Shown here one piece after another: positions 7,016 through 14,143 of a DNA stretch of 64,000 nucleotides. The first letter of the stretch is position 1, and each line of letters starts with the position of its first letter. A program made the position numbers and the translations under genes. The stretch comes from Candidatus Eiseniibacteriota bacterium (lineage in GTDB: Bacteria > Eisenbacteria > RBG-16-71-46 > JABDJR01). Under the pieces are notes generated by a model. It made no database searches, had not been told where the DNA came from, and was given only the letters and a program-made list of their open reading frames with translations. The DNA lies in contig CAWANH010000028.1 of NCBI GenBank assembly GCA_963783375.1, forward strand, positions 366,491 through 430,490, written 5' to 3'.

Positions 7016-8395
7016 GACGATTCCTTTCGATGCGATTGCCACTCCCACCAGGCCTGGACGGGAAGGAGGGCGAGAACCGGCACCACTTCCAGGCCCTTCA
7101 TGAGCATACTTTCCCGCCAGGGTCCGCCGGCCCGGAAAAGCGGGAGCGGGGCGTAGGCCAGGAACACGGTGATCGTCCAGAGCCACCAGGCGGGCTGGCG
7201 GCAGAGCACCGCGGCGGGAAGGAGCCAGAGCACGTACCAGGGGTGGGCGACCGGCGAGACCAGGAGGAGCGCCCCCACCGTCCAGGCGTAGACCGACGGC
7301 AGGGGGCGGCGGAGCGCGATCGTGGTCAGCCAGACAACCCCGACGATGATCGCCCCCCAGAGCTTGGCCTGGCGGAGCGAGGGCTCGAGGGCGCCCGACT
7401 CGCGGAAGAGAAACGTGAACAGGAAGTCGTTGGCCCGCCACTTGGCCGCGAACACTCCGAGGCTCCCCAGCGCATCCACCCCGTGAAGCTGAAACGGCAG
7501 GTAGAGCGCGGCCACGATAACCGGCAGGAAGGCCCATCGCCACCTGAGCCGCGGGAGCAACGCGGGCAGCGCCACCCAGGGCAGGAACTTCACCAGCCCG
7601 GCCAGGGTGAGCGCGACCCCGCTCGCCGTCCAGCGCCGGGCCGCCCACGCGGCCAGGGCCGCGGCCACCAGGCAGAGACCCACCGAATCGGCGTGCCCGC
7701 TCCCCGCGAACTCCACCACCACCAGCGGATGCCAGAGGTAGAGCGCGGCCCATGTCCGGGGCCGGCCGGTCGCGGCCAGCGCGCGCACCAGGAACCAACC
7801 GGTCCCCAGGTCGAAGAGCGTCGCCGCCACCTTCCAGGCGGTCACGGAATGGGAGATCGCGGTCACCGCGGCGAAGAGGAGCTGGAGGAGCGGCGGGTAG
7901 ATGGTGGGGATGTTCGAGTACGGGAGGCGCGCCCACAGGGCGTCGCGAAGCGCGGCCAGCTCGGGCGCGTTGGGCGCGTAGCGGTAGGGGTTGATCCCGT
8001 GAAGCAGGACGTGCCCGTCCCAGAGGTAGCGGTAGAGATCGTCGCTCAGGGTCGGGGGGGTGGTGAGGACCAGCAGCCGGAACACGACCGCCCCCGCCCA
8101 GATGAGCGCCATCAGGCGCCGTTCCGAGGCCTCGGCGGGCGGGCCGGAGGGCGCGGGCGAAGCGGACGCGAGCGGGACGGGTTCGGGGGGAACGCCGCGG
8201 CCGGGTCGAAGGGAGGCGTGCGGGCCGAACGCGGGGCGCGCCACCCCCCAGGCCGCGGCCAGATAGGCCACCATGAGGAGCGCGTACACCGAAGCGAAGC
8301 GAGTGAACTCGAGGCCCCAGTCGGGTATGGTGAGGGCCGTTCCGTAGAGGAGAACCATGGCCAGACCCGAGGGCAGAAGCCACCACATCCGGAGA

Positions 8396-8400
<5 letters not shown>
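7012..8400 (-). CDS. Polytopic integral membrane protein, DUF2029 / GT87-like (GT-C fold) glycosyl- or mannosyltransferase family.
   Basis: From the ATG at 8400: MVLRMWWLLPSGLAMVLLYGTALT..., at least 10 predicted TM segments, motifs LWHPLVVVEFAGSGHADSVGLCL and HPWYVLWLLP. The N-terminal ~110 codons of ORF 7012..8730 are antisense to pyruvate kinase and were rejected. Confidence 0.5.
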
Positions 8401-9939
<1,539 letters not shown>

Positions 9940-10109
9940 GCGGGGCCGGTGGACCGGGGGCGGGCGGGTCAGGGGGAGCGGGCTCGGACTCCGGCGGACC
10001 CTTCCGCCCGGGAGCCGGCGGGCCGGAACCCACCGGCACGGCGCGGGATCCGTCCGGGTCGACCGGCCCGGCGACGGAAGGCGCGCGGCCGGCCGGCCCG
10101 GCGTTCGGC

Positions 10110-10835
10110 ATGTTCGCCAAGCCGCCCCGGCCCGGCGAGGTCAAGACGCGGCTCGTGCCGCCGTTGTCGCCGGAGGGGGCGGCCAGGCTCTACGCGGCGA
10201 TGCTGGCCGACACCGCCGTGGCGCTGGCCGGGGCGGGGGTGGCGTGGGGGGTCGTCTCCACCGACGTCGCAGCCCAGCGGGCGGCGTGGCCCGCGAATGC
10301 GCCCGAGCCGCAGTTCTGGTTGACGCAAACCGGCGCGGATCTCGGGGAGCGTATGTCCAACGCGATGGCGGAACTGATCGGCCGGGGGTATCCCGGTGCG
10401 GTGCTGGTGGGAAGCGACCATCCCGCGGTCGACGCCGAAACCTACCGGCAGGCCGCGGCGCTTCTCGGGTCACCGGCGAGAGGCGGCGTCGCCGCGGAGA
10501 AGGGCGCGGCGGCGGTCTTCGGCCTCGGCCCCGGCGAGGAACTGAACGTCGTGCTCGGACCGACCCACGACGGCGGGTACTACCTGATCGGGCTGACCCG
10601 GCCCAACCCCTCTCTCTTCGGCGGGATCGAGTGGAGCACGCCCAAGGTGCTGGAAGACACGCTGGAGCGTCTGATCGTGATGCGGCTCCAGGCGGCGATG
10701 CTCGGGGCCTGTTGGGACGTGGACCGCCCGGAAGACCTGGAGCGCCTGCGTTCATGGCTGGAGGCCAACGCGGACCGGCCCGAGCCGCCGTGCCATTTCA
10801 CCCGGGAGGTGATGGGGTCGCTGCGTCGGGTTTGA
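10110..10835 (+). CDS. DUF2064 / TIGR04282-family protein (nucleotidyltransferase-like, CofC-like fold).
   Basis: [35 protein letters not shown]... matches the conserved N-terminus of DUF2064 proteins (FAKAPxPGxVKTRL). ATG at 10110 is in frame with ORF 8829..10835, after the pyruvate kinase stop at 9939. Confidence 0.65.
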
Positions 10836-10899
10836 GTTCCATCCCGCAGCCCGAGTGCCGGCGGCGCGCCCGGGGGAACACGGCCGGCGCGAGAGCCTG

Positions 10900-11966
10900 A
10901 CCCCGACGCGCACGGGCCTGACCTCGGCGCGCGGGTCTTTATTGCGAACATGGCTTCCCCGGGGAAGCACGCCGGAGCTTTATTGCGAACCTGGTGTACC
11001 CGGGTGCAAGTCGGAGGGTCAAGAGGCGAATACCCGGGTACCCACCGCCGGCGCGCGGGCCTTTATTGCGAACATTGCTTCCCCGGGGAAGCACGCCGGA
11101 GCTTTATCGCGAACCTGGTGTACCCGGGTGCAACCCAGCGGTTCGCCATGGACCCGGGACCCCGGCGCGCACCAGGCCTTATTGCGAACATTGCTTCCCC
11201 GGGGAAGCACGCCGGAGCTTTATTGCGAACCTGGTGTACCCGGGTGCAACCCAGGGGGTGGAGAGGCGAATACCCGGGTACCCGCCGCCGGCGCGCGGGT
11301 CTTTATTGCGAACATTGCTTCCCCGGGGAAGCACGCCGGAGCTTTATTGCGAACCTGGTGTACCCGGGTGCAACCCAGCGGTTCGCCATGGACCCGGGAC
11401 CCCGGCGCGCACCAGGCCTTATTGCGAACATTGCTTCCCCGGGGAAGCACGCCGGAGCTTTATCGCGAACCTGGTGTACCCGGGTGCAACCCAGGGGGTG
11501 GAGAGGCGAATACCCGGGTACCCGCCGCCGGCGTGCAGGCCTTTATTGCGAACATTGCTTCCCCGGGGAAGCACGCCGGAGCTTTATTGCGAACCTGGTG
11601 TACCCGGGTGCAACCCAGCGGTTCGCCATGGACCCGGGACCCTAGCGCGTGCGGGGGGTCGCCCCGGAATTCACCCGGGTGTGCGCGCGGTTGGGTGCGC
11701 GGGGCCGAGCCCGAAGTCTGCCCGGAGCTGCCAACGCCACCGCGAGCCTTTTTGTTGCGAACCCTTCATTGCGAACATTGCTTCCCCGGGGAAGCACGGC
11801 CGGAGCTTTATCGCGAACCTGGTGTACCCGGGTGCAACCCAGGGGGTGGAGAGGCGAATACCCGGGTACCCACCGCCGGCACGCGGGTCTTTATTGCGAA
11901 CATTGCTTCCCCGGGGAAGCACGCCGGAGCTTTATCGCGAACCTGGTGTACCCGGGTGCAACCCGG
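10900..11966. repeat. Higher-order tandem repeat: a conserved ~76-bp core (tttattgcgaacattgcttccccggggaagcacgccggagctttattgcgaacctggtgtacccgggtgcaac) present 8 times with ~120-bp period, separated by two alternating 'spacer' types (A: ccagcggttcgccatggacccgggaccccggcgcgcaccaggcc; B: ccagggggtggagaggcgaatacccgggtacccgccgccggcgcgcgggt), i.e. a ~240-bp A/B super-unit repeated about 3.5 times.
   Basis: Read directly from the sequence. Each core contains the perfect 16-bp palindrome gcttccccggggaagc and a second palindrome around acccgggt / tacccgggta, plus the direct repeat ttattgcgaac twice. It lies in the 1.8-kb gap between the DUF2064 gene and pcnB. Confidence 0.85.
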
Positions 11967-12119
11967 CGGATCGCCATGGGCCCGGGACCCCGGCCCGCGC
12001 GGGGGGTCGCCCCGGAATTCACCCGGGTGTTCGCGCGATTGTGGGTGCGGGACCGGCCCCGAACTTCACCCGGGACCCCGGCATGGCACCGCGAAGGAAC
12101 CCACGCAATGCGGCAACCG

Positions 12120-12310
12120 GACGAGCTCTGGCCGGCCTTCACCCCCGCCGCCGACTTCACCCGGACTCCAGGCCATCGGGCCGGCCTTCACCCCCGCCGC
12201 CGACTTCACCCGGACTCCAGGCCAGCGGGCCGGCCTTCACCCCCGCCGCCGACTTCACCCGGACTCCACCACGGGCCGGCGGAACCCCCACCTCGACTTC
12301 ACCCGGACCC
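12120..12310. repeat. Tandem ~50-bp repeat (ggccggccttcacccccgccgccgacttcacccggactccaggcca[t/g]cgggcc) about 3.5 copies, followed by a C-rich tract up to about 12500.
   Basis: Direct reading of 12121-12310. The six-frame ORFs spanning the two repeat arrays (10855..12525, 10994..12586 and others) are repeat-driven and not credible genes. Confidence 0.8.
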
Positions 12311-12639
12311 CGGGCCGGCGGCCCGATTCCTGGCGCCACCACGGCCCCGGGAAACGCCGCCGCCGCCCCTCGACGCCCGCCCCCCCCGGCTACCCCGTTC
12401 TCCCACGCCCAACACCCGGCCCCTCAGTCCCCACCCCCGACCCCCCGGGCCCCTGGTCGCGCCCCCCCCCACGCCCCCGCCTGCCCCCGCCGGTCTCAAA
12501 AGAGCCTCAATCTCTTGCGCCATAATATTTTATCCGCACTCACCCCGGCGGACCGTGTTGCCCCCAACCCCTCCGAGCCGGTATGATCTTCTGTCTTCGC
12601 GTCGGCCGCCACCCTCGGCCCTCGGAACCCAATATCATC

Positions 12640-14022: not shown

Positions 14023-14042
14023 GCCGCCCCACGACCCGCCGC

Positions 14043-14143
14043 GACTATCCCATGACCGAGCCCGACTACCCCACGACCCGCCGCGACCATCCCATGGCCG
14101 AGCCCGACTACCCCATGACCGAGCCCGACTACCCCACGGCCGA
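14043..14143. repeat. Five tandem copies of a 21-bp unit (gactaccccatgaccgagccc and variants) in the short convergent gap between pcnB and the glutamine-synthetase-like gene.
   Basis: Direct reading: gactatcccatgaccgagccc / gactaccccacgacccgccgc / gaccatcccatggccgagccc / gactaccccatgaccgagccc / gactaccccacggccgac. Confidence 0.7.

Follow-up and report, generated by a model that had tools for sequence, protein, structure and literature searches.

The spacer between the DUF2064 gene and pcnB in a 64,000-nt stretch of an Eisenbacteria chromosome (contig CAWANH010000028.1; hereafter "the window," meaning the whole stretch that was analyzed) is occupied, as judged from sequence comparisons, by a tandem, higher-order and strain-variable array of a core element that combines short conserved tags with hairpins. 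The core is found at two loci, and its presence or absence as well as its orientation differ among close relatives. The evidence places the array among extragenic tagged-hairpin repeats that were amplified into a minisatellite, and identifies it as genuine, unusual-looking and narrowly distributed. The explanation that we tentatively favor, with slightly less than even confidence, is a lineage-specific, non-coding minisatellite of a "tagged hairpin" element that resembles repetitive extragenic palindromes (REPs) and would be selfish or near-neutral.

The stop codon of DUF2064 (10835; coordinates are window positions unless a relative's locus is named) and the start codon of pcnB (ATG at 12583 or 12640; Pfam PolyA_pol) enclose 1.75 kb without a credible gene. 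Core and unit labels were derived from a BLAST module map and from spacer alignments. Each core contains, in order, a tag (TTATTGCGAAC), 3 nt, a first palindrome (hairpin 1, HP1; GCTTCCCCGGGGAAGC), a linker, a second tag, 5 nt and a second palindrome (HP2; GTACCCGGGTGC). The original prediction, made from the sequence alone, described a core of ~76 bp repeated eight times; the eight copies were recovered, but a repeat search resolved the core itself as an internal duplication, giving 16 half-units of ~41 bp with the form "CTTTATYGCGAAC + 3-5 nt + palindrome," of which type 1 carries HP1 and type 2 carries HP2. HP1, a 16-bp palindrome, is perfect in all eight copies, as had been stated (10953, 11077, 11193, 11317, 11433, 11557, 11780, and 11905), with 0.13 copies expected from shuffles and none elsewhere in the 64 kb. 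The second palindrome noticed in each core is indeed there, but it is imperfect and contains a T.G pair. When up to one mismatch was allowed, the 11-mer tag was found in 17 copies, all of them on the + strand between 10939 and 11942 (0.12 expected); these are the two per core that had been described, and an extra one at 11752.

Tandem Repeats Finder reported three periods: 240 bp over 10939-11649 (3.0 copies, 96% matches), 124 bp (5.8 copies) and, in a repeat at 12130-12316, 49 bp (3.9 copies). The proposed alternation of two spacers, A and B, within a super-unit of ~240 bp was confirmed on both counts, but it is interrupted by a 110-bp module, C, and the module order reads (core-A, core-B) x3 + C, core-A, core-B + C', 49-bp repeat, C-rich tract. 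Spacers A and B can be aligned with each other, and the 240-bp unit therefore represents a diverged duplicate of a unit of ~120 bp, i.e., a higher-order repeat. Module boundaries are clean, the units carry unit-specific substitutions, and the edge units are the least homogenized.

Comparison of the pcnB site among relatives revealed how variable this arrangement is. In L021 (ENA ERZ25039549, a 2.39-Mb contig), pcnB is 99% identical and the flanks are collinear at 97-98% nucleotide identity. An array occupies the same site, with five cores in the order core-A, core-B-C, core-B-C, core-A, core-B-C', hence two full C copies and a C' variant, and with ~2 copies of the 49-bp unit. In its C-rich tract (L021 9660-9805), a doubled unit of ~21 bp (CGCCACCACCTCCCCGGGAAA) is matched ~6 times, with overlap between the matches; the window does not have this unit as an array. 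The short-read metagenome-assembled genome (MAG) L016, at 91-94% identity, has a contig that breaks off within the first unit. The first spacer of L016 corresponds to the distinctive first one of the window, which indicates that the edge units are orthologous and the array is older than that split. In a sister species (L022 and L023; pcnB 86%, flanks 82-90%), a single inverted core is located at the same intergenic site, its HP1 being a different palindrome, GCGCCCCTGGGGGCGC, adjoined by TTCACCCGGGTGAA. At pcnB loci with 65-70% amino-acid identity (L053, L055, and L056), the 0-132 bp upstream of the gene contain no trace of the element. Head-to-tail intergenic units that are assembled as eight vs. 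five cores, in differing module order, between strains with ~97% flank identity correspond to a minisatellite or variable-number tandem repeat (VNTR), and the satellite-like character suggested at the outset is borne out by the higher-order A/B units. On this comparison the array is recent, dispensable and unstable within the species.

A collapsed, expanded or chimeric assembly, which the original prediction had left as an alternative, is very improbable. It would account for the copy number that differs between assemblies, and the adjacent pyruvate kinase gene is frameshifted in both long contigs, which is compatible with indel errors and means that the fine detail of the repeats may err. However, three independent assemblies (the window, the 2.39-Mb contig of L021 and the short-read L016) place the same core at the same site, and this agreement is why the array is taken to be real; the collinear flanks at ~97% identity, the clean module boundaries and the unit-specific substitutions argue in the same direction.

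The description of the gap as non-coding was upheld. GC content at codon position 3 (GC3) is flat at 0.65-0.68 across frames, vs. 0.93/0.70/0.46 in pcnB, and all three forward frames are open, as a GC content of 66-77% allows. From one unit to the next the reading frame of the core shifts, since neither 124 nor 116 bp is divisible by 3, and a 556-aa open reading frame (ORF) in the gap has no Pfam match. A comparison of the array translation with 1.84 billion representatives of ~15 billion proteins yielded only two matches. P0361 (530 aa), from a 2.04-Mb NCBI/ENA contig, and the false ORF 10994-12586 of the window are 100% identical, and P0362 (261 aa, on a 2,386,780-bp contig) agrees with the called ORF of L021 in length and contig. 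Gene callers have thus turned the array into false ORFs in public databases. A degenerate CRISPR array or a repetitive protein-coding gene retains next to no probability. The repeats do hold a palindrome, their 3' part ends in ...ATTGCGAAC, which loosely resembles the CRISPR-repeat tail ATTGAAAC, long ORFs are open in the three forward frames, and gene callers did call P0361 and P0362 here. These readings are nevertheless refuted by half-units lying 5 nt apart, flat GC3, the changing frame of the core, the missing Pfam match, the two false ORFs of the array as sole database matches, and recurring "spacers" with no cas genes in the window. The original prediction had likewise argued against CRISPR on the last two grounds, though it counted two spacer types where there are three. 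A coding repeat protein was ruled out by the flat GC3 and the lack of a Pfam match. An origin of replication (oriC) was rejected as well: no GC-skew switch was seen beyond local gene and C-tract effects, the region has 66-77% GC, and relatives with the same gene order do without the array.

Beyond pcnB, the family was traced by a pattern scan for two tags 27-33 nt apart in one genome for each of 185,579 species. Only two relevant matches were obtained (L016 and L007), and both lie at the ends of contigs from one relative MAG. The second locus lies downstream of dinB in relatives. L064 carries two half-units at this site, one with its hairpin cut off, and L068 carries at least 1.5 units with a period of ~108 bp. 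Up to the point where the L068 contig ends, the unit of L007 and the dinB-downstream unit of L068 share 91% identity. L007 was rejected as a third independent locus, as it may be the L068 locus after inversion, and only two loci are claimed. At the dinB site, L067 is without the element, and L066 retains only two palindromes without tags (GTTCCCCAGGGAAC and TGCACCCGGGTGCA), i.e., hairpin remnants. A search for further copies, recommended in the original prediction and made with an nhmmer core profile and a tag-plus-stem scan, gave none in the 202 kb of sequence from the genus apart from those at the two loci. The family is, as far as these searches extend, low in copy number and genus-restricted, with two loci so far, and the possibility of a generic, genome-wide REP-like element, named beforehand as a refutation, found no support.

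At L064 (15125-15262), the cut-off hairpin (GCGCCCCTG...) precedes an inverted repeat of 11 bp (TGGACTCCTCC ... GGAGGAGTCCA), by which a ribosome-binding site would be sequestered, and an ORF starting with MQLTIAVDLAK runs to the contig end. This looks like a candidate insertion sequence inside the hairpin, with an encoded N-terminus that recalls IS110-family transposases. With two 11-mers required at a distance of 24-36 nt, scans retrieved ~45 unrelated tandem repeats (14-, 21-, and 35-47-bp units) from low-GC genomes and metagenomes. Among them, L002, L003, L009, and L034 (21-bp unit CAATTACATGTTATTGCGAAC), L014, L027/L039/L048, and L040 stem from unrelated low-GC bacteria and show long non-coding 21-bp arrays with the same 11-mer, often at contig ends and with an iteron-type look. 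In viral contigs, three shuffled 11-mers gave 1, 1, and 5 matches vs. 0 for the real 11-mer. As shuffled 11-mers match as often or more, a universal TTATTGCGAAC motif was dismissed as chance, and the same control led to the rejection of any relationship between the low-GC arrays and the pcnB array. A literature search of the 11-mer returned primers only.

The pattern of conservation within the core points to the tag as a recognized sequence. The tag consensus is TTATYGCGAAC, and between the window and L022 the tags are identical at 22/22 positions, vs. 22/59 for the remaining core columns (Fisher p = 7e-8); this invariance implies that some factor recognizes the tag. The comparison of the stems covered four lineages with seven distinct variants of the half-unit. 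The center of the palindrome lies 11 nt after the tag in six of the seven and 13 nt after it in one. Compensating changes were identified in the second pair from the loop (C.G or A.T), the third (T.A, C.G or T.G) and the fourth (T.A, G.C or A.T), and all three non-Watson-Crick pairs in the seven variants are G.T on the tag strand and A.C on the opposite strand. Three different palindromes stand behind the same tag; their centers, CCCCGGGG and CACCCGGGTG, are conserved while the outer positions covary. Every locus, the L066 remnant included, has the 10-bp palindrome CACCCGGGTG, which could be a site for a dimeric protein. Folding energies are unremarkable: HP1 reaches -7.8 kcal/mol as DNA, and single units, whose folding was another of the checks proposed beforehand, have z-scores of only -1.9 to +0.5 against GC-matched shuffles. 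Whole-unit folds are dominated by pairing between the repeated palindromes and are uninformative. Judged from the sequences, these features point to a factor that would recognize the tag by its sequence and the neighboring element as a stem-loop on one strand.

An array of duplex DNA-binding sites for one or more host proteins, of the centromere, iteron-cluster or nucleoid-organizer type, would also explain an invariant tag, and it is a possible though unlikely alternative; the original prediction had suggested such an array for a dimeric protein. Here, a protein would bind the direct 11-mers and/or a dimer the CCCGGG-centered palindromes, forming a nucleoprotein complex upstream of pcnB. The 41-bp half-unit with its 16-bp inverted repeat is formally like sopC of the F plasmid (PMC3177203), the tag spacings in the window (41, 83, and 75 bp) approximate whole helical turns, CACCCGGGTG persists even in the L066 remnant, and a low copy number of two loci suits specific sites better than selfish repeats. 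Yet the 38-bp tag spacing of L022 does not keep the helical phase, the neighborhood holds no par, rep or DNA-binding genes, and no plasmid or phage similarity was detected. Copy number is unstable between strains, and relatives with the same gene order and no element show it to be dispensable. Covarying outer stems and three palindromes behind one tag, finally, fit a hairpin better than a single dimeric operator. A resemblance to parS- or Noc-like half-sites (TTCAC/TTCCC) needs a 4-bp central insertion and was treated as coincidence.

A transcribed array could act as a tandem family of small RNAs (sRNAs) or as a sponge, with ~16 single-stranded UUAUUGCGAAC motifs exposed between stable stem-loops so that a complementary RNA or an RNA-binding protein is titrated; this is a rather doubtful reading. 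Seed regions of sRNAs usually show an invariant single-stranded motif between covarying stems, a pattern of conservation that the tag and its stems match. The G.U-compatible pairs occur on the tag strand only, the tags, AU-rich and set between GC-rich hairpins, look similar to Hfq or RNase E sites, and HP1 of L022 scores as a weak bidirectional terminator. On the other hand, Rfam gave no match in the array region even at E <= 1 (and none at the gathering score in the whole window, where no tRNA was found), no promoter-like site was detected within or before the array on either strand, and there are no per-unit terminators, the sole terminator-like match being located at the left edge of the array. 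On these grounds tandem sRNA genes were rejected, and a by-eye check of sigma-54 and extracytoplasmic function (ECF)-type promoter spacing gave no fit. Moreover, the element of L022 is reversed relative to the flanking operon, so that read-through would yield the opposite strand, single units do not exceed shuffles in folding, and close relatives lack the element.

For the minisatellite of a REP-like tagged hairpin, the comparisons show the following. The functional unit is the core of ~80 bp, with two invariant unpaired tags and a GC-rich hairpin or palindrome at a fixed distance after each. The core entered the DUF2064-pcnB spacer within one genus of the Eisenbacteria, with a second site downstream of dinB, and at the pcnB site it was amplified in place, head to tail. 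A unit of ~120 bp was duplicated and diverged into the A/B unit of 240 bp, whose copy number and order now differ between strains. Growth and shrinkage may proceed by unequal recombination or replication slippage between the direct repeats. The core might persist through a trans-acting factor that recognizes the tag and the adjoining stem-loop, both on the strand that bears the tag and in single-stranded form, be it DNA or RNA. Candidates for this factor would be a transposase or recombinase, of the HUH type or another (compare REPs and RAYT), or an RNA-binding protein. Effects on the host are probably incidental, although the stem-loops could act as a transcriptional insulator or 3'-end stabilizer.

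Several observations weigh against this explanation. No transposase or other trans-acting factor was identified in any sequence examined, i.e., the window and the fetched loci, and the element occupies only two loci, far fewer than REPs do. As L007 may equal the L068 locus, the case for transposition rests on presence and absence and on the inversion in L022, and neither a target-site duplication nor a clean empty-site junction could be defined. The G.T pairs on one strand (3/3) amount to only p = 1/8, HP1 of L068 has an uncompensated G.A mismatch, and single units fold no better than GC-matched shuffles. A host function is just as compatible with the strict conservation seen in the tag and in CACCCGGGTG. 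Together with its sister locus, the array may even serve as a platform for a factor that reads an 11-nt single-stranded tag plus a stem-loop, with copy number tuning the response, though we consider this improbable. If true, the element could be either a multi-site RNA sponge controlling an RNA-binding regulator or, in a hairpin-guided DNA transaction system of low copy number, a substrate of a new HUH or bridge-type recombinase.

To our knowledge, the Eisenbacteria are a phylum without cultured members and kilobase-scale higher-order tandem arrays are rare in bacterial chromosomes. The array offers a clean natural case of satellite-style evolution in a prokaryote, including A/B divergence, homogenization, edge effects and strain-level gain and loss, and defines a new tag-plus-hairpin motif for this uncultured phylum. 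It breaks short-read assemblies and could be used as a strain marker. At present it is a descriptive curiosity, and its value would rise if the factor turned out to be a new hairpin-guided enzyme or RNA regulator.

Along the window, the array is organized as follows, with all features on the + strand. The left flank after the DUF2064 stop codon (10836-10935) holds a 21-bp repeat of 2.6 copies (10884-10935), of which L016 lacks one copy, and closes with a sequence similar to the 3' end of spacer A. Unit 1 (10936-11059) consists of core 1 (10938-11009) and an edge variant of spacer A, the orthologue of the first spacer in L016, and unit 2 (11060-11175) of core 2 (11062-11133) and spacer B. Units 3 and 4 (11176-11415) form one 240-bp higher-order unit (core 3 with A, core 4 with B), followed by units 5 and 6 (11416-11652; core 5 with A, core 6 with a shortened B). 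Module C (11653-11762), the 110-bp stretch between cores 6 and 7, contains the palindrome TTCACCCGGGTG at 11670 and ends at its 3' side in the degenerate extra tag, TTGTTGCGAAC (11752). Units 7 and 8 (11763-12000) combine core 7 with A and core 8 with B'. After core 8, module C' (~12001-12128) shares the head of C with TTCACCCGGGTG (12018) and has a distinct tail with CTTCACCCGGGAC (12065). The 49-bp tandem repeat (12130-12316), with two CTTCACCC motifs per unit, and the C-rich tract (12317-12495) agree with the ~50-bp repeat and C-rich stretch noticed originally; on the + strand, C makes up 55% and G 24% of positions 12101-12495. Runs such as CCCCACCCCCGACCCCCC in this interval make the - strand rich in G runs just upstream of the pcnB promoter. 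Seven exact occurrences of a TTCACCCGG(GTG) motif are spread over 11670-12298. The upstream block of pcnB with its sigma-70-like promoter (12496-12587) lies outside the repeat and marks the right-hand limit of the array. The promoter reads TTGCCC-18 nt-TATGAT (12558-12587); a promoter-like site of this form (TTGCCC, 17-18 nt, TATNNT) is conserved across four species, and a block of ~50 bp just upstream of it is shared by the window and L022, where promoter and block together lie at 12496-12587 and 9865-9950, respectively.

The surroundings are those of an ordinary chromosomal region with 70% GC, and the nearest named pcnB homologues belong to Candidatus Eisenbacteria (~70% identity). Genes in the window include those for pyruvate kinase (PK), glutamine synthetase, XdhC, ornithine carbamoyltransferases, fumarase, xanthine-dehydrogenase-type molybdoenzymes, an amylase and secreted proteins with Por_Secre_tail. 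No transposase, mobile-element, cas, rep, par or phage genes were found in the window, no transposase was found in the window or in those fetched loci whose called genes had Pfam labels, and the 240-bp unit has no plasmid or phage similarity. The PK gene is split, with Pfam PK positions 2-139 in ORF 8357-8992 and positions 147-328 in another frame, within a 668-aa ORF (8829-10835) that also holds DUF2064. PK is therefore frameshifted near 8830-8990, its C-terminal part being fused in frame to DUF2064. In L022, PK and DUF2064 are separate intact genes, while PK is also fragmented in L021; the frameshift points either to indel errors in assembly or to pseudogenes. Other intergenic tandem repeats nearby vary between strains, too. 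A G-rich repeat with a 15-bp unit, GGCGGGGCGTGGAGC, and 4.5 copies (9449-9549) lies in the PK-DUF2064 linker; L022, where the PK stop codon overlaps the DUF2064 start, is without this stretch. A 21/42-bp repeat (5.6/2.8 copies; 14027-14143) is located between the convergent stop codons of pcnB and glutamine synthetase, where the gap measures 107 bp in the window vs. 60 bp in the ~97%-identical L021, and is probably another strain-variable VNTR.

With respect to known systems, the array shares regularly spaced, palindrome-containing repeats with CRISPR arrays and departs from them in its spacers (A, B, and C only, none unique), its lack of cas domains in the window and its spacing. In the sopC centromere, SopB binds a 16-bp inverted repeat within each of 12 direct repeats of 43 bp (PMC3177203). 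Direct repeats of ~41-43 bp that each contain a 16-bp inverted repeat are common to sopC or iteron arrays and the element described here. Unlike these, it is chromosomal, has no sopA/sopB-like or rep genes nearby, and carries two to three palindromes per unit; its inverted repeats covary between species, its copy number is unstable and relatives exist without it.

Close parallels are found among REPs and bacterial interspersed mosaic elements (BIMEs). REPs are tagged palindromes that lie downstream of genes in modular clusters and are thought to be mobilized as single-stranded hairpins by RAYTs, the hairpins of one strand being regarded as active (PMC3733652, PMC2817692). They are recognized by an unpaired GTAG or CGTC tag at one end (PMC3733652) and by more than 100 dispersed copies per genome (PMC2817692). 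A further mark is a cognate RAYT gene, IS200/IS605-like, with the repeats on its flanks. The array shares with REPs and BIMEs of Enterobacteria, Pseudomonas, and Stenotrophomonas the short GC-rich extragenic palindromes with an unpaired conserved tag, the position downstream of genes, the modular clusters with alternating linkers, and a species-specific, fast-evolving character. Like the 20-40-nt imperfect palindromes of REPs, its palindromes are short, GC-rich and all intergenic (HP1 16-18 nt, HP2 12-16 nt). It differs in its tag, TTATYGCGAAC, which stands 3-5 nt 5' of the stem with no GTAG or CGTC adjoining the stems, and in its orientation, as 17/17 tags and all units lie on the + strand while REPs alternate within clusters. 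Two loci (two matches in the one relative genome that the scanned collection contains) compare with >100 copies, and no RAYT gene was seen in the window or the Pfam-labeled loci. Tandem amplification with a 240-bp higher-order unit is also far more regular than in REPs or BIMEs, a point on which the original prediction was right.

We know of no described repeat families in the Eisenbacteria. Mycobacterial interspersed repetitive units (MIRUs) and the pneumococcal BOX elements (boxA-(boxB)n-boxC) are intergenic tandem units of 40-120 bp with strain-variable copy number. The array is similarly intergenic, modular and strain-variable, with related units at more than one locus, and is distinguished by its higher-order A/B periodicity, its tag-plus-hairpin unit and far fewer loci. 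In the alpha-satellite of eukaryotes, diverged monomers are homogenized as a larger unit by unequal crossing-over, with the most divergent copies at the edges. The array, at ~1 kb vs. megabases, in a bacterial host and outside any centromere context, follows the same design: core+A and core+B are homogenized as a larger unit, and the units at its edges are the most divergent.

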